From Clostridia bacterium (GTDB lineage Bacteria; Bacillota; Clostridia; UBA1381; UMGS1253), in assembly GCA_045532715.1 (NCBI GenBank), contig JAZSGM010000180.1, positions 1 to 38,205 on the forward strand: 38,205 nt of DNA, given 5' to 3'. Position 1 is the first letter of the stretch. Every line of letters begins with the position of its first letter. The notes below the pieces were generated by a model, which was given only the letters and a program-made list of their open reading frames with translations, searched no databases and was not told the origin of the DNA. The translations under genes and the position numbers were made by a program. Of this stretch, positions 5,928-13,908 are shown piece by piece.

Positions 5928-7241
5928 ATGAAAATTGTAGCATTAAACGGACTTTTGGGGTATGGCTACAGCGAAGAAGCACTGAACATTGCCTTTTCGG
6001 AAAAGGTAGATTATCTTGGCGTGGATGCCGGTTCGACCGATCCGGGGCCGTACTATCTCGGCAGCGGAAAATCATTTACGGACAGAGGCGCAGTAAAGCG
6101 GGATCTGGCACTGGCGCTGCCAAAGGCATTAGAGCATAAAGCGCCGTTTATCATCGGTACGGCAGGCGGCGCGGGCAGCAGCGCGCATGTGGCGTGGCTG
6201 AAAGAAATTTTGCTTGAAATTGCTGCTGAGCAAAATTTATCGTTCAATCTCGGCACCGTTTTAAGCGATGTTTCCAAGGCATATGTTTCAGAGAAATTTG
6301 AAAGCGGTAAGCTTTTGAATATGAGCGATGAAATGCCGGCAGACGAGGCGGCAATTGAGGAAAGCACAAGAATTGTCAGCCAGATTGGCATTGCACCGAT
6401 TATAGAGCTTTTGAAACAGAAGGCAGATGTCATTATTTGCGGTCGCGCCTGCGATACGGCAATCTATGCGGCGCCGTGCGTTTTTGAAGGCTACAACGAA
6501 GGACTTGCGTTTCATATGGCAAAGATTATGGAATGCGGCGCGATGTGCTCCGAGCCGGTTGCGGCGGCGGATGTGATGCAGGGCTATATGTATGACGATT
6601 GCTTTGAGCTTCGCCCGGCAAATCCAATTCGGAAATGTACTGTGGACAGAGTTGCGGCGCACACGCTGTATGAGCAGTCAAACCCGTATCTGATTTACGA
6701 GCCGGACGGCGTTTGCGACCTGACCAATTCAAAATTTGAGCAGGTGGATGAACGCACCGTCAGAGTCAGCGGCTCTGTATTTAAGGAAGCAGAGGAAAAG
6801 ACCTTAAAGCTTGAAGGCGTCAGATGTGCAGGCTACAGAACCATTTGTCCTGCGACAGTCTATGATCCGGACACCATCGCGCATATAGATGAAATTATAA
6901 ATACAGTTACCGGCTTTGTTCGGGAAAATACGAAAAACACATTGCCGGCAAACAGCTACACGGTGCATTTTAAATGTAGCGGCGGCAAGGATTCTTCTTT
7001 AGGCATCATCATTGATGTTGTCGGAAAAACGCAGGAAATTGCCGATATGGTTTGTGCGCTTGCAAGAAGCCGGATGCTGCACTGCGACTATGCGGGCAGA
7101 AAGTCCACGGCAGGCAATCTTGCCTTTCCGTTTTCGCCGTCCGACATTCATGTTGGCGAAGTGTATGAGTTTTCGGTATTTCATCTTGCAAAGGTGGATT
7201 CGCTTCTGGAGACGGCAGAAATTTTAACGGAGGTGGTTTAA
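5928..7241 (+). CDS. AtuA-like acyclic-terpene-utilisation family protein (DUF1446)
   Basis: 437 aa, N-terminus MKIVALNGLLGYGYSEEAL...DYLGVDAGSTDPGPYYLG as in DUF1446 proteins. AAGGGGTGG SD. Confidence 0.7.
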   Translation: MKIVALNGLLGYGYSEEALNIAFSEKVDYLGVDAGSTDPGPYYLGSGKSFTDRGAVKRDLALALPKALEHKAPFIIGTAGGAGSSAHVAWLKEILLEIAAEQNLSFNLGTVLSDVSKAYVSEKFESGKLLNMSDEMPADEAAIEESTRIVSQIGIAPIIELLKQKADVIICGRACDTAIYAAPCVFEGYNEGLAFHMAKIMECGAMCSEPVAAADVMQGYMYDDCFELRPANPIRKCTVDRVAAHTLYEQSNPYLIYEPDGVCDLTNSKFEQVDERTVRVSGSVFKEAEEKTLKLEGVRCAGYRTICPATVYDPDTIAHIDEIINTVTGFVRENTKNTLPANSYTVHFKCSGGKDSSLGIIIDVVGKTQEIADMVCALARSRMLHCDYAGRKSTAGNLAFPFSPSDIHVGEVYEFSVFHLAKVDSLLETAEILTEVV

Positions 7242-11430: not shown

Positions 11431-13113
11431 ATGAGAATTTTTGACATGCATACGCATATGGGCATTAAGTGCGGTAAGCCGGATGTGCTTGCCGAAATGG
11501 AAAAGGCAGGCGTGTACGGCGGCTGCATCTTTTCGCCGCGCCCGAAGGAGCACAGTAAGGAGTTTGGCGTGGAATTTGAAGAGCGGCTTGCGGCGGTGCT
11601 GGATTTTACGAAGGACCACCGCGACAGACTTTTTCCGATTCTGTGGGTTGACCCGTATGAAAAGAATATTTTTGAAAACATTGATAAGGCTGTAAAGGCA
11701 GGCATCGATGGCTTTAAGATGATTTGCTCGACCTATTTTGTGTATGAAGAGCAGTCACTTGCGGTACTAAAGCATATTGCATCTTATAACAAGCCGGTGT
11801 TTTTCCACTCCGGCATTTTGTGGGACGGCAAGGTTTCGTCGGCATACAATCGCCCGATGAACTGGGAGGCGCTTTTGCCCATCAAGGGATTGCGTTTTTC
11901 GATGGGGCACTGCTCGTGGCCGTGGATTGACGAATGTATTGCGATGTACGGCAAGTTTTTAAATGCCGACAACAAGGGCACGCGTGAGCACGCAGAGATG
12001 TTTCTGGATTTGACACCCGGCACGCCGGACATCTACCGTGAGGAGCTTTTGGAAAAGCTGTTTACCATCGGCTATGATTTTGAAAACAATGTATTTTTCG
12101 GAACGGACTGTTATTCACAGCACTACAATCCGGACTGGACAAAGCATTGGTTAGATACTGACCGCAAAATTATGGACAAGCTCGGTGTCAGCAAGGCGGT
12201 ACGCGAAAAGATTTACTTCGACAATCTTCTGCGCTTCCTTGGTAAGAGTGAGGCAGTTATTGAGCATGCACGTCCGAGTGAGGACAATTCCAATGCGTGG
12301 AGCCCGGTCAATGGCGCAGTGTATGAAATCATTGAGAAGTGGTATAAAAAATTAAGCTTCCCGAAGGTGTATGATGCGGCGTTTAAAAAGGCAATGCGCG
12401 ACATTAAAATTTCCGACGCGATTACAATAGAGAATTATGATATGAAAGAAACGGATGGTAAGCGCAATTTGCTTTCGTATTTATTCTTCTGTGAGGCGCT
12501 TTGCGAAAAGTATGCCGCAAAGGGTATCAGCGAGGATGTTTTAATAGCTACATTGCAGGATATTGTAATTTGGCTCGATACATGGAGCGACTTAAAGGGC
12601 GAGATGTATCTTGGCGAACTCTCGTGGCTCAGATATCATATGTCGATGCGGCTGTTCAGGCTCGGCAGATTGCAGTTTTGTATAGCAGGCGCAGGGCATG
12701 ATATTCCGTCTGCAAATGTAAAAAAAGGCGAACCGGTCATTGAAGTGCACATTCCGGAGGCCGGCAAATTGGACCGTGCAAGCTGCGAAGCCAGCCTTGC
12801 GCAGGCAAGAGAATTTTTCAAAACATATTTTCCGGAATACGATTACAAGTGCTTTACCTGCCACAGCTGGCTCTTGGACGAATCCTTAAAGGACATTTTA
12901 GGTGCAGAGAGCAACATAAGCAAATTCCGTGAGATGTTTGTTTTGGATGTTGCAGAAGAATCTGATGCAATATTTAAGTATGTGTTCCGCTGGAATGCGA
13001 CGAGAAATCAAATACTGAAAATGCCGTGTGCCTCTGGCTTTGCAAGCAGGGTGCAAAAAAAGGCGCGCGAAGGCGGTAAGTTTTACGAAACCGTCGGTTG
13101 GATTCAAAAATAG
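11431..13113 (+). CDS. Fusion: amidohydrolase-type TIM-barrel hydrolase + GNAT-like acyltransferase-domain module
   Basis: N-terminus MRIFDMHTHMG and FHSGILWD fit metal-dependent amidohydrolases. The C-terminal ~270 aa carry GRLQF, VHIPE and CHSWLLD motifs that I remember from stand-alone 'acyltransferase domain-containing' proteins. Confidence 0.6.
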   Translation: MRIFDMHTHMGIKCGKPDVLAEMEKAGVYGGCIFSPRPKEHSKEFGVEFEERLAAVLDFTKDHRDRLFPILWVDPYEKNIFENIDKAVKAGIDGFKMICSTYFVYEEQSLAVLKHIASYNKPVFFHSGILWDGKVSSAYNRPMNWEALLPIKGLRFSMGHCSWPWIDECIAMYGKFLNADNKGTREHAEMFLDLTPGTPDIYREELLEKLFTIGYDFENNVFFGTDCYSQHYNPDWTKHWLDTDRKIMDKLGVSKAVREKIYFDNLLRFLGKSEAVIEHARPSEDNSNAWSPVNGAVYEIIEKWYKKLSFPKVYDAAFKKAMRDIKISDAITIENYDMKETDGKRNLLSYLFFCEALCEKYAAKGISEDVLIATLQDIVIWLDTWSDLKGEMYLGELSWLRYHMSMRLFRLGRLQFCIAGAGHDIPSANVKKGEPVIEVHIPEAGKLDRASCEASLAQAREFFKTYFPEYDYKCFTCHSWLLDESLKDILGAESNISKFREMFVLDVAEESDAIFKYVFRWNATRNQILKMPCASGFASRVQKKAREGGKFYETVGWIQK

Positions 13114-13118
13114 AAAAA

Positions 13119-13150
13119 CGCTCTCCCTTATTTAAGGGGAGGGCGTTTTA
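13119..13150. terminator. Bidirectional terminator (560-aa gene / smORF copy 1)
   Basis: AAAAA, stem CGCTCTCCC.../...GGGGAGGGCG, TTTT. Confidence 0.7.
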
Positions 13151-13157
13151 GCTTTGC

Positions 13158-13271
13158 TTAGCTTTCTTTTGCGCAAATATATGCATCTTCCATTTTGCAT
13201 TGCAGCTGCTTTAATTCTTCAATCATATCCGTGATTTTGTTAAACACTTCAAAATACAGTTTTTCGTCCAT
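13158..13271 (-). CDS. Unannotated 37-aa small protein MDEKLYFEVFNKITDMIEELKQLQCKMEDAYICAKES (copy 1)
   Basis: ATG at 13271, GAGGTG SD (13283-13278) 6 nt upstream, TAA at 13160-13158, terminator downstream. A second copy encodes the identical peptide, and its only 2 nt differences are third-position synonymous changes. Confidence 0.65.
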   Translation of the reverse strand: MDEKLYFEVFNKITDMIEELKQLQCKMEDAYICAKES

Positions 13272-13285
13272 CGTTTTCACCTCTA

Positions 13286-13317
13286 AAATAAAAAAATGCG
13301 CAGCCGAGGCCACGCAT
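13286..13317 (-). terminator. Intrinsic terminator between the leader and the smORF RBS (copy 1)
   Basis: Minus strand: AUGCGUGGC CUCG GCUGCGCAU (9-bp stem) followed by U7. It ends about 8 nt before the SD. Confidence 0.75.
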
Positions 13318-13435
13318 GAAAAACGAGGTCTGTTTGCTGCGACGCAATCACATACACCAACACGGTTATGAGAACCAGACCTGCGTTTTTACCTGAACGC
13401 AAGTCGTGTTAGTGTATATTGTGATTTCGTCGCAA
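13318..13435 (-). ncRNA. Structured leader / candidate sRNA, variant 1
   Basis: Starts at the predicted TSS. The 29-nt arm (13433-13405) pairs with the 26-nt arm (13364-13339), about 25 bp with one 3-nt bulge. Includes G-U pairs that would be A-C on the other strand. The apical 40 nt contain a 9-bp hairpin. Confidence 0.6.
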
Positions 13436-13439
13436 CATT

Positions 13440-13468
13440 ATTGTATCATATTTTTAAAAGGCTGTCTA
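13440..13468 (-). promoter_or_regulatory. Sigma-A-type promoter of module 1
   Basis: Minus strand: TAGACA (13468-13463), 17 nt, TACAAT (13445-13440), with TG one base upstream of the -10. Confidence 0.65.
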
Positions 13469-13492
13469 TACCTTTTCGTCGCAGATTTCGAC

Positions 13493-13530
13493 AAAAAGCG
13501 CCCTTCCCTTAGATCAGGGAGGGCGTTTTA
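13493..13530. terminator. Hairpin terminator at the junction of the two modules
   Basis: AAAAA GCGCCCTTCCCT tagatc AGGGAGGGCG TTTT. Confidence 0.7.
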
Positions 13531-13537
13531 GCTTTGC

Positions 13538-13651
13538 TTAGCTTTCTTTTGCGCAAATATATGCATCTTCCATTTTGCATTGCAGCTGTTTTAATTCTTC
13601 AATCATATCCGTGATTTTGTTAAACACCTCAAAATACAGTTTTTCGTCCAT
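13538..13651 (-). CDS. Unannotated 37-aa small protein, copy 2 (identical peptide)
   Basis: Same SD and ATG geometry as copy 1. It differs from copy 1 only at 13589 (AAG>AAA, Lys21) and 13628 (GAA>GAG, Glu8). Confidence 0.65.
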   Translation of the reverse strand: MDEKLYFEVFNKITDMIEELKQLQCKMEDAYICAKES

Positions 13652-13665
13652 CGGTTTCACCTCTA

Positions 13666-13697
13666 AAATAAAAAAATGCGCAGCCGAAGCCACGCAT
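13666..13697 (-). terminator. Intrinsic terminator between the leader and the smORF RBS (copy 2)
   Basis: Same hairpin as copy 1, with the loop changed to UUCG, followed by U7. Confidence 0.75.
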
Positions 13698-13826
13698 GAA
13701 AAATACATGACTCCGTGTCGTCAAACAAATCCACATTCTAACAGAAAGTATGCAGAATAGAGCATGTATTTTTACCGGAAGGTAAAAAACATACTTTCTG
13801 TTAATGTATTGAGATTTGTTTGACAG
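13698..13826 (-). ncRNA. Structured leader / candidate sRNA, variant 2
   Basis: The 35-nt arm (13824-13790) pairs with the 33-nt arm (13752-13720): 12 bp, an internal loop, then 5 + 13 bp. The apical 37 nt contain an 8-bp hairpin UUUUUACC-uucc-GGUAAAAA. Confidence 0.6.
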
Positions 13827-13830
13827 CATT

Positions 13831-13859
13831 ATTATATCATATTTTCAAAAGGCTGTCTA
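13831..13859 (-). promoter_or_regulatory. Sigma-A-type promoter of module 2
   Basis: Minus strand: TAGACA (13859-13854), 17 nt, TATAAT (13836-13831), with an upstream TG. Confidence 0.65.
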
Positions 13860-13883
13860 TACCTTTTCGTCGCAGATTTCGAC

Positions 13884-13908
13884 AAAAAGCGCCCATATGG
13901 GCGCTTTT
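13884..13908. terminator. Bidirectional terminator after the kinase gene
   Basis: AAAAA GCGCCCA t(a) TGGGCGC TTTT. Confidence 0.7.

Follow-up and report, generated by a model that had tools for sequence, protein, structure and literature searches.

Known terminator/antiterminator platforms comprise riboswitches and protein-controlled attenuators, with SAM-II and preQ1-II as pseudoknot classes, and multicopy c-di-GMP riboswitches precede clostridial surface protein genes. Here we describe two units that lie on the minus strand of a 38,205-nucleotide stretch of clostridial DNA (the window), each of which consists of a leader followed by a 37-aa open reading frame (ORF). As in the riboswitch platforms, the leader is predicted to hold an intrinsic terminator just 5' of the Shine-Dalgarno (SD) sequence, an antiterminator competing with this terminator, and a pseudoknot to decide between them, and, as with the multicopy c-di-GMP riboswitches, it occurs in many copies per genome, ahead of genes for surface proteins and uncharacterized proteins. 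Unlike known riboswitches, it is without an Rfam family, its P1 stem is unusually long (30-40 bp) and free in sequence, and metabolic and transport genes, which would hint at a ligand, are missing from its cargo. Few of its unpaired nucleotides are conserved and could line a pocket, so a small-molecule aptamer is not evident.

Among protein systems, the SinI/SinR-type pairs of Bacillus subtilis combine a small helical antagonist with a Cro/C1-type HTH repressor. A comparable arrangement, in which the gene for a small helical protein faces a Cro/C1-type HTH gene, is found in four leaderless members of the peptide family described here, and docking of the helix is proposed. Unlike in SinI/SinR, there is no sequence similarity and no match to Pfam SinI, the genes are divergent and not tandem, and the HTH neighbors are only about 75 aa long, with HTH_3/HTH_26 covering them almost end to end, and lack any extra domain, in particular one at the C-terminus to which such a partner would bind. 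A further difference is that no regulator gene is found near the window copies or most of the others. Microbiome small-protein catalogues (those of Sberro et al. and GMSC) reportedly list uncharacterized families, and the peptide resembles such families in being no longer than 50 aa, conserved, present in gut/rumen-type Clostridia and without domain or name.

In Bartonella, the RNAs Brt1-9 and the genes Trp1-9 downstream of them are multicopy and genus-wide, the RNAs being promoter-driven, structured and about 150-200 nt long (Tu et al., 2016; PMC5387305). According to that report, each RNA ends at a terminator directly 5' of a poorly transcribed small gene, and the RNAs were proposed to act as riboswitch-like cis gates (PMC5387305). 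Set against this description, the units in the window are likewise multicopy and genus-wide, with a putatively promoter-driven, structured RNA and a terminator ahead of a small gene. The Brt RNAs are, however, alphaproteobacterial and have no sequence or structural relation to the leader. Their cargo is an HTH DNA-binding protein, whereas the leader described here is followed by the gene for a predicted single-helix peptide of 37 aa or by any of many other genes.

Two identical ORFs in duplicated expression units

Both ORFs comprise 37 codons plus a stop and lie on the minus strand (ORF a, 13271-13158; ORF b, 13651-13538). Re-reading of the sequence confirmed, as an earlier note on this DNA had stated, that they encode an identical peptide, MDEKLYFEVFNKITDMIEELKQLQCKMEDAYICAKES, that each has the SD sequence GAGGTG 6 nt 5' of its ATG (13283-13278 and 13663-13658), and that they differ only at 13248/13628 (GAA/GAG, Glu8) and 13209/13589 (AAG/AAA, Lys21), both silent third positions. 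The caution in the note that two sites are weak statistics was justified, the probability that both are silent being 0.024 if all changes are taken as equal and 0.11 if only transitions are considered. The exact 37-aa sequence is present, unnamed, in a protein collection (on an NCBI-sourced contig), so it has been called by at least one gene caller without receiving a name. Tryptic candidates from the peptide are MDEKLYFEVFNK and ITDMIEELK.

The direct repeat that holds the ORFs is 187 nt long (13137-13323 and 13517-13703, 98% identity) and extends beyond them, and a second repeat of 71 nt contains the promoter (13433-13503 and 13824-13894, 96% identity). Outside the ORFs, the 187-nt repeats differ at 13308/13688, in the terminator loop, and at 13274/13654, between the SD and the ATG, so that the divergence is about 2% and the same in coding and non-coding parts. 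The best explanation for the pair is that a self-contained expression unit, some 380-390 nt long, was recently duplicated in tandem. The promoter and the terminator-SD-ORF parts would have stayed 96-98% identical, and the central part of the leader would have been swapped for that of another paralogue.

The order of elements in each unit is a sigma-A promoter, a structured leader of about 150 nt with an intrinsic terminator, the SD, the ORF and a second terminator, all on the minus strand unless stated. The inverted-repeat box TTGTCGAAATCTGCGAC, a possible operator, is located 5' of the -35 element in unit b (13869-13885) and is also found in unit a (13478-13494). Most of the genus-level copies are preceded by such a box (TTGTCG-N7-CGRCA), followed by an A-rich run and the -35 element. 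The promoter matches the consensus at 11 of 12 positions in unit b (13831-13859, TAGACA-17-TATAAT) and at 10 of 12 in unit a (13440-13468, TAGACA-17-TACAAT), both with a TG extension, and essentially every leader of the family is preceded by an extended -10 element, TGnTAnnnT. Leader RNA b, of "type B" (13670-13828), consists of a long P1 hairpin, an apical P2, a tail and the terminator, and was matched on the sense strand only by a covariance model of the leader, R1, with 65.9 bits (E 4e-14). Leader RNA a, of "type A" (13290-13437), was matched with 137.3 bits (E 7e-32), a score that is partly by construction as it is a seed member of the model.

The apical strand of unit b, AAAAAUACAUGCUC (13760-13773), may pair either within P2 or, as a pseudoknot, with the tail GAGUCAUGUAUUUUU (13699-13713), since it is complementary to 13713-13699. 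The tail may in turn pair with the 5' arm of the terminator to form an antiterminator, and this is the pairing seen in the minimum free energy (MFE) fold. The corresponding elements in unit a are the apical strand AAAAACGCAGGUCUG (13376-13390), which is complementary to 13332-13319 with one bulge, and the tail CAGACCUCGUUUUU (13319-13332), as read from the sequence and the pairing energies. The intrinsic terminator of leader b (13669-13697), AUGCGUGGC UUCG GCUGCGCAU followed by U7, ends 18 nt 5' of the ATG, and that of leader a was located by terminator prediction and covariation at 13289-13317. The terminator 3' of ORF b (13493-13529) has the stem AAAACGCCCUCCC / GGGAAGGGCG followed by U5, and the same hairpin is predicted on the plus strand. 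A two-way terminator follows ORF a (13114-13149), with a plus-strand prediction at 13115-13149 and U5 on the minus strand, and is common to the convergent gene at 11431-13113.

The ORFs are protein-coding and belong to a large family

Comparison with homologues demonstrates that both ORFs are genuine protein-coding genes under purifying selection. The earlier reading of a real, constrained coding sequence is thereby supported by evidence that is much stronger than two silent sites. In the first search, which gave approximately 28 copies, the frame was interrupted by a stop only in L015, by a TAA, and one further copy was truncated at the end of its contig. The median dN/dS of the homologues (NG86) is 0.195, or about 0.2, and substitutions are unevenly spread over the first, second and third codon positions (1172, 670 and 1750, summed over pairs), with the third the highest. 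The SD is at the correct spacing in nearly all copies of the family, the exceptions, in which no clear GGAGG-type motif was seen, being C72/L035 and L023. This genome has five copies, namely the window pair and three more diverged paralogues (69-100% amino acid identity, all open), and one to four copies were found in each of the five other genomes of the genus that were searched. The sequence features by which small coding ORFs are recognized, namely a frame that is kept in homologues, an excess of synonymous changes and a conserved SD and start, were all observed.

The family to which the ORFs belong by sequence similarity is a very large and unnamed family of small proteins in the Oscillospirales/Clostridia. 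A search that started from an alignment with this genome's 41-aa paralogue as its first sequence yielded 580 clusters at 90% identity, and metagenomes yielded 2,870 clusters at 50% identity (E<=1e-3), nearly all of 36-110 aa. The core of the family is Y-F-x-l-F-N-x-I-T-D-x-I-E-x-L-x3-Q-x3-E-E-x-Y-I, with four residues invariant and eight nearly so among 111 family sequences. The first 32 residues or so are conserved, and the C-terminal tails are acidic and very variable in length, some consisting of just 3-4 residues. The distribution is patchy, with members in 13 of 61 related genomes, and orthologous positions, recognized by shared flanks, are kept between species of the genus.

The product is best explained as a cytoplasmic peptide of 37 residues that is predicted to form a single amphipathic alpha-helix. 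The description of the peptide as helical agrees with the AlphaFold2 model, which is a single helix over residues 3-36 (pLDDT 95.9, about 96), and direct reading of the sequence, which has 9 acidic but 5 basic residues and lacks any hydrophobic stretch, bears out the view that it is acidic and does not resemble a membrane toxin. The cysteine pair of the window peptide is not conserved in the family and is therefore unlikely to matter; a functional role for it was rejected on these grounds.

Database searches gave no indication of a named relative. No family cut-off was reached in Pfam-A or NCBIfam, where the best scores were at chance level (Med15_M, 13.8 against a cut-off of 24.2 bits; PRK06851, 18.5 against 556 bits). 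A profile search of the PDB chains with the family produced nothing significant (best E 0.27), nor did searches of PHROG (best E 0.03, to families of unknown function) and PADLOC (BstA, E 0.023 over 27 residues). No domain fusions were found among the longer database proteins of the family, which, apart from one tandem two-domain protein, all owe their length to a start called too far 5', so that the leader terminator is translated. In these over-long entries, the same terminator is translated ("HFSCVASAAHFFI") ahead of distant homologues. The core motif appeared in no paper in a full-text literature search.

No recurrent neighbor gene was found in the sampled neighborhoods, and no regulator gene is located beside the window copies or beside P0031, P0038 and P0080. 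One copy of the family adjoins TnpV, and the cultured species Caproiciproducens galactitolivorans BS-1 carries a member (locus L039) beside a divergent gene for a small HTH regulator of 75 aa.

Structure and covariation of the leader RNA

Searches against Rfam gave no match anywhere in the whole window and none for the leader even at E<=10; the best relevant sub-threshold matches to the leader were terminator look-alikes and miRNA hairpins. The leader is also not identifiably described in the main text of a survey of structured RNAs in the human microbiome (PMC8040213). The fold z-scores are -9.6 for leader a and -8.2 for leader b. In MAFFT alignments of the leaders, the variable inner stem was out of register and RNAalifold saw only the outer P1, P2 and the terminator. 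This was overcome in model R1, for which the MFE fold of the window copy was projected onto the leaders and Infernal was left to realign them. The search with R1 recovered 40 leaders at E<=1e-5, all of them on the coding strand, with antisense matches only at E>=0.006.

In the alignment of these 40 leaders, double compensatory changes were observed at 40 of the 42 base pairs. The fraction of paired cells was 91%, as compared to 31-49% with slid partners, and the score was reached in 0 of 500 shuffles, a figure that, like the other permutation figures given here, overstates the significance because related sequences were used and their alignment had been fitted to the model itself. Seven of the nine pairs in the terminator helix show compensatory changes across the 40 leaders, with 99.7% of the cells paired. 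The duplex energy of the pseudoknot is -17.7 kcal/mol with the leader's own tail versus -11.1 kcal/mol with other tails (as low in 0 of 5000 permutations), and the apical strand paired with its own tail gives -18.5 kcal/mol in unit a and -15.9 kcal/mol in unit b. For the antiterminator (tail against 5' arm of the terminator), the energies are -12.2 kcal/mol for the own and -9.1 kcal/mol for other partners (0 of 5000 permutations); it is weak in some copies, and in window copy a it reaches only -5.6 kcal/mol versus -12.9 kcal/mol for the terminator. The antiterminator is present in many MFE folds when pseudoknots are disallowed. These comparisons show that the predicted helices P1, P2 and terminator covary and that the putative pseudoknot and antiterminator pairings are specific to their own partners. 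With a predicted intrinsic terminator, that is, a GC-rich hairpin and a U-tract, located between the promoter and the SD, the features of the leader fit those of a default-off attenuator.

The leader was found in 42 of 61 related genomes, with up to 22 copies per genome, and precedes many unrelated genes. Its cargo in this genome and its relatives is accessory-type and includes a BspA-LRR surface protein, YpsA-like proteins and other unrelated genes. An SD is located some 15-20 nt past the U-tract for nearly every gene that directly follows a leader, and some leaders (L077, L091 and L067) are not followed by a convincing ORF. Control of a default-off type seems to occur in two independent forms in the peptide family, either through the leader or, in the four leaderless copies, through the divergent Cro/C1-type HTH regulator.

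Several other types of element were rejected: a mobile MITE-like element, as the flanks are orthologous between species and terminal repeats are absent; an integron attC or retron msd hairpin, as integrase and RT are absent and the structure is confined to the RNA sense strand; and 6S RNA or a T-box, as there was no Rfam match.

Discussion

We consider it probable, if by no means certain, that the ORFs are genuine genes for a helical peptide, located in a duplicated unit and expressed under the gate of the leader. According to this explanation, transcription would start at the near-consensus sigma-A promoter and the first 150 nt or so would fold into the long P1 topped by the small P2. The 3' strand of P2 and an A-rich loop could alternatively pair with the tail just past P1 to form the pseudoknot. 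With the pseudoknot formed, the terminator hairpin would form next and transcription would stop 18 nt before the start codon, 5' of the SD, which would be the off state. If the apical strand were kept in P2 or held by some factor, the tail would be free to pair with the 5' arm of the terminator, and RNA polymerase could read through this antiterminator into the SD and the ORF, which would be the on state. Which way the switch works, what triggers it and what the peptide does belong to the inferred part of this account. Our best guess is that the peptide is a protein-binding regulator, the conserved helical face of which docks on another protein and antagonizes or modulates a regulator, and its synthesis would need tight control because of such an activity.

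A leader of this kind could itself be the main product of the locus, namely an abundant, stable and trans-acting sRNA of about 150 nt that ends at the terminator, with the peptide made only by leak-through or having a minor role, so that the locus would be a dual-function one. The strong promoter, the stable 5'-terminal hairpin and the efficient-looking terminator give it the appearance of an sRNA gene, as do the many copies per genome, the leaders without a convincing ORF and the precedent of the Bartonella Brt RNAs (PMC5387305). We nevertheless regard this as unlikely, given that the gene behind a leader almost always has an SD shortly past the U-tract, that the peptide is under purifying selection, and that the pairing between tail and terminator covaries, which is sensible only with regulated termination. 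The sRNA and attenuator readings are not mutually exclusive and can both hold.

Other explanations concern the peptide. It is highly doubtful that the peptide is a harmful effector of the growth-arrest, abortive-infection or toxin-like type and that this is why the expression of every copy is blocked, whether through a terminator leader or through a repressor of its own. The two independent forms of control, the multiple paralogues and their patchy spread, the copy next to TnpV and the accessory-type character of the other leader cargo are in line with such an effector, but the peptide has no hydrophobic segment, no significant PADLOC or PHROG match and no antitoxin-like neighbor in the window or the sampled neighborhoods, and the orthologous positions kept within the genus point to stable chromosomal genes. 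The conserved N-terminal part and variable tail, and the presence of several paralogues per genome, recall a precursor of a modified or exported signaling peptide, with a leader helix and a short C-terminal core. This has little to recommend it, as a signal peptide is absent, no sampled copy is adjoined by a modifying enzyme, protease or transporter, the acidic tails vary greatly in length, and cysteine is not conserved. The window pair taken alone, with flanking non-coding sequence that is equally conserved, would even be compatible with an untranslated ORF, conserved because the repeat acts at the RNA or DNA level, an explanation that is scarcely credible in view of the low dN/dS, the greatest variation at third positions, the conserved start, stop and SD, and the helical periodicity of residues across thousands of clusters.

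We return to the leader-gated peptide gene, which goes beyond the claim of the earlier note in that the ORF appears to be the cargo of a structured, terminator-containing leader and its family is very large. A more far-reaching proposal, which we put forward only tentatively, is that the leader represents a class of RNA switch, off by default and found throughout the order, that has no earlier description and in which a pseudoknot on a 30-40-bp stem of free sequence chooses between terminator and antiterminator. The switch would respond to some signal or factor in the cell, its regulon would be an accessory one of surface and small proteins, and the 37-aa helix, the commonest cargo in the genus, would be an output regulator that relays the signal by binding a conserved protein.

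Annotation of proteins shorter than 50 residues is incomplete, and roles are known for few of them. The family described here comprises thousands of clusters in gut/rumen-type Clostridia and has no name, domain or structure, yet selection on it is clear and its expression seems tightly controlled. The widespread structured leader, which is absent from Rfam, provides an experimental handle, since whatever switches it on also sets when the peptide is active, and the question of the peptide can be put to the test in cultured C. galactitolivorans BS-1, where a family member adjoins a small HTH regulator. A switch that sensed a new signal would extend the so far short list of RNA switch classes in bacteria, and the added class would be tied to regulation by a microprotein. 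If the proposal is true, these bacteria would have a signaling pathway from RNA switch to microprotein for which there is no described counterpart.

Comparative evidence for a small-protein gene in two copies

The minus-strand ORFs at 13271-13158 (copy a) and 13651-13538 (copy b) both translate into MDEKLYFEVFNKITDMIEELKQLQCKMEDAYICAKES, and each ATG is preceded by GAGGTG at 6 nt. Their sole differences, at 13248/13628 (GAA/GAG) and 13209/13589 (AAG/AAA), are both silent, so that the earlier description of two identical 37-aa ORFs was reproduced in full. The ORFs are located in a 187-nt direct repeat (13137-13323 and 13517-13703, 98% identical), which extends beyond them and contains two further, non-coding differences at 13308/13688 and 13274/13654; the coding and non-coding divergence is therefore equal, at about 2%. 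A second repeat of 71 nt (13433-13503 and 13824-13894) is 96% identical. Under different mutation models, two changes would both be silent with a probability of 0.024 to 0.11, and we agree with the earlier note that the two sites taken alone are weak evidence for coding.

The coding constraint proposed in that note was borne out by the relatives. A tblastn search identified three extra copies of the peptide in the 2.7-Mb assembly that contains the window, on contigs C102, C67 and C72, all with open frames and with protein identities of 69-78%. When 61 related genomes were searched with a profile, the peptide was present in 5 of the 5 other genomes of the genus, with 1-4 copies each, and three or four further genera also had it in some of their genomes. 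One of about 28 copies from the first search has an in-frame stop and one more is truncated by the contig end; the former, locus L015 (G009:C3), has a TAA following codon 25 and an intact leader upstream, and is probably a pseudogene. A GGAGG-type Shine-Dalgarno (SD) sequence is located at the right distance in almost all of these copies, with C72/L035 and L023 lacking a clear one. The median Nei-Gojobori dN/dS of 16 genus-level copies was 0.195, and third codon positions changed most (1172, 670 and 1750 differences at positions 1, 2 and 3, summed over non-independent pairs). In large databases, clustering of the family at 90% identity gives 580 groups and clustering at 50% identity (E<=1e-3) gives 2,870, nearly all of them 36-110 aa long; none matches a Pfam domain, and the only designation is "hypothetical protein". 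The named family records are from Clostridia or Oscillospiraceae MAGs and from one cultured strain, Caproiciproducens galactitolivorans BS-1. At the level of sequence comparison, these data establish that both window ORFs represent a genuine, selected small-protein gene, which has been duplicated in tandem as a complete expression unit.

Conservation and predicted structure of the peptide

Over 111 aligned members, Y6, N11, Q24 and E28 are invariant, and M1, F10, T14, D15, I17, E18, L20 and Y31 are nearly so. Neither Cys of the window protein is conserved. The peptide was previously described as acidic, apparently amphipathic-helical and devoid of a hydrophobic stretch; its residues include 9 acidic and 5 basic ones, it lacks any hydrophobic run, and AlphaFold2 predicted a single unbroken helix of residues 3-36 from the 111-sequence alignment, with a mean pLDDT of 95.9. 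The conserved residues are spaced i, i+3/4, i+7 and thus line a single broad helix face. Because this face includes polar invariants (N11, T14, D15, E18, Q24 and E28), it may serve as a partner-docking surface rather than as a plain coiled-coil seam. No significant match to the peptide was obtained in Pfam, NCBIfam, PDB, PHROGs or PADLOC, and its core motif was not found in print by a full-text search of the literature.

Two unusual members are found at L034 (G009:C2:408-734) and as P0125, one being a 108-aa protein in which the peptide domain is followed by a basic, Cys-rich C-terminal extension, and the other an 81-aa protein with two peptide domains in tandem. At L076 (G016:C48), a leader precedes a 70-aa ORF with the product MSVYRKMYYEQAAEIADLIEE...QKRLEEEY..., which resembles the peptide but is longer, apparently through insertion of a coiled-coil segment.

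Organization and exchange of the expression units

Each ORF is the final element of a self-contained unit on the minus strand. The unit consists of an inverted-repeat box TTGTCGAAATCTGCGAC (13478-13494 in copy a, 13869-13885 in copy b), a near-consensus extended -10 promoter (TAGACA-17-TGnTAyAAT), a highly structured leader in the first ~150 nt of the transcript (fold z-scores of -9.6 and -8.2), a conserved intrinsic terminator (AUGCGUGGC-loop-GCUGCGCAU-U7) whose end lies 18 nt from the ATG and immediately 5' of the SD, and then the SD and the ORF, with a second terminator 3' of the ORF. In copy a, a two-way hairpin terminator 3' of the ORF (13114-13149) is shared with a convergent 560-aa gene that ends at 13113. 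The conserved box has the form TTGTCG-N7-CGRCA, followed by an A-rich run, and is located immediately 5' of the -35 element of peptide promoters across the genus, including those at C102, C67, L008, L010, L019, L022, L028 and L032. The box looks like a candidate operator for a dimeric regulator, and its half-sites resemble the base of the long leader hairpin P1 (GCGACA...TGTCGC).

The promoter part and the terminator-SD-ORF part of the two units are 96-98% identical. Identity drops to 59% in the central P1 domains, as compared to 49 +/- 2.6% in shuffled sequence, but these domains have similar folds despite the divergence. The leader of copy a ("type A") is like that of C67, and the leader of copy b ("type B") is like L027 from a sister species. 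We compared window positions 13114-13437 and contig C102 to L008 (G001:C268), the positional orthologue of copy a in a sister species. This locus has a window-type peptide and the same downstream flank, but its leader is close to that of the paralogue on C102, with only the inner stem replaced by a different, still complementary sequence. The orthologue carrying another leader indicates that recombination has swapped leaders among paralogous loci.

The leader is a structured RNA with diverse cargo

The leader is a covarying structured RNA with a terminator, and it is absent from Rfam: over the full length of the window, cmscan yielded no match that reached a gathering threshold, and a relaxed cut-off of E<=10 in the leader region added nothing relevant. 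A covariance model built from ten length-homogeneous copies recovered 40 leaders at E<=1e-5 among the loci in hand, all on the coding strand, while antisense matches had E>=0.006. In an alignment of related sequences fitted to the model, compensatory double changes were found in 40 of 42 base pairs, 91.1% of the cells were paired, as compared to 31-49% with partners slid by 1-3 columns, and the observed covariation was reached in 0 of 500 shuffles.

Seemingly longer family members in the databases are over-long start calls, with N-termini such as "HFSCVASAAHFFI" and variants that correspond to the terminator hairpin translated in frame, which independently shows the same terminator before distant homologues. 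Such misplaced starts are common in gene calls for these small genes, as in P0007, P0042, P0058, P0071, P0100, P0107, P0118, P0130, P0138 and P0155-P0161, and the window has examples too, namely ORFs of 51 aa at 13313 and 56 aa at 13708.

Ten matches to the model (E<=0.1) were identified in the window's own genome. Five precede a peptide gene, one a 995-aa BspA-type LRR/Big_2 surface protein, three YpsA/SLOG-like proteins (one of 185 aa and two of ~82-143 aa, Pfam below threshold) and one no clear ORF; the non-peptide leaders are at C206:1825-1988, C261:16486-16583, C137:5690-5818 and 5965-6167, and C147:261-413. The leader was found in 42 of the 61 related genomes, representing 20 of 24 genera and four families, with a maximum of 22 copies per genome, as compared to only 13 genomes and 5 genera for the peptide. 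Locus L031 (G050:C9:7730-10810), from a genome with 22 leader matches in total, has three leaders in tandem (828-983, 1058-1226 and 1300-1456), the first of which is followed by an SD, a 4-codon remnant ORF and the next promoter. The cargo elsewhere consists mostly of unknown small proteins, signal-peptide/surface proteins and membrane proteins. No metabolic or transporter gene was found among these genes, which argues against a metabolite riboswitch and for signalling or protein-mediated control.

A predicted switch and the possible role of the peptide

In copy a, the 3' strand of the apical hairpin P2 and its A-rich loop, AAAAACGCAGGUCUG (13390-13376), are complementary to the tail after P1, CAGACCUCGUUUUU (13332-13319), and the counterpart pairing in copy b is AAAAAUACAUGCUC with GAGUCAUGUAUUUUU. 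These sequences differ in other leaders (e.g., ...GCUCC/GGAGC... and ...GGUGU..CCCC/GGGG..ACAC...). Across 33 leaders, the mean duplex energy of the apical strand with its own tail was -17.7 kcal/mol, as compared to -11.1 kcal/mol with the tails of other leaders, and the tail paired with the 5' arm of its own terminator at -12.2 kcal/mol, as compared to -9.1 kcal/mol with other terminators; 0 of 5000 permutations were as low in either case. Many minimum-energy folds, in which pseudoknots are not representable, contain the tail-terminator hairpin in place of the terminator. The antiterminator is weak in some copies (-5.6 kcal/mol in copy a).

These pairings suggest an off state that would consist of P1, the pseudoknot and the terminator, and an on state that would consist of P1, P2 and the antiterminator. 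On average, P2 (about -11 kcal/mol) is less stable than the pseudoknot, which also has single-stranded toeholds at both ends, in the A-run of the P2 loop and in a conserved GGUU-type segment after P2; we therefore infer that off is the default. A factor that binds the apical region would then turn expression on. Such a switch and its default-off direction are likely but unproven, both the direction and the kind of factor being read from the predicted pairings.

The peptide has no recurrent neighbour gene. Three members on long contigs are flanked on both sides by unrelated housekeeping genes, and promoter and leader take up ~420 nt upstream of each. About seven copies are leaderless. Four of them have a divergent neighbour gene that encodes a Cro/C1-type HTH protein (~70-75 aa; HTH_3/HTH_26, E<=1e-11), a further copy faces a gene whose product is RHH-like at a sub-threshold score, and another adjoins TnpV. 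A role as a SinI/SinR-like antagonist is possible but not supported, since the peptide has no homology to that system, its HTH partners have no extra domain and there are no fusions. The simplest reading is that the leaderless copies are controlled by a repressor in place of the attenuator, and tight, default-off control thus seems to be the constant feature of the peptide genes.
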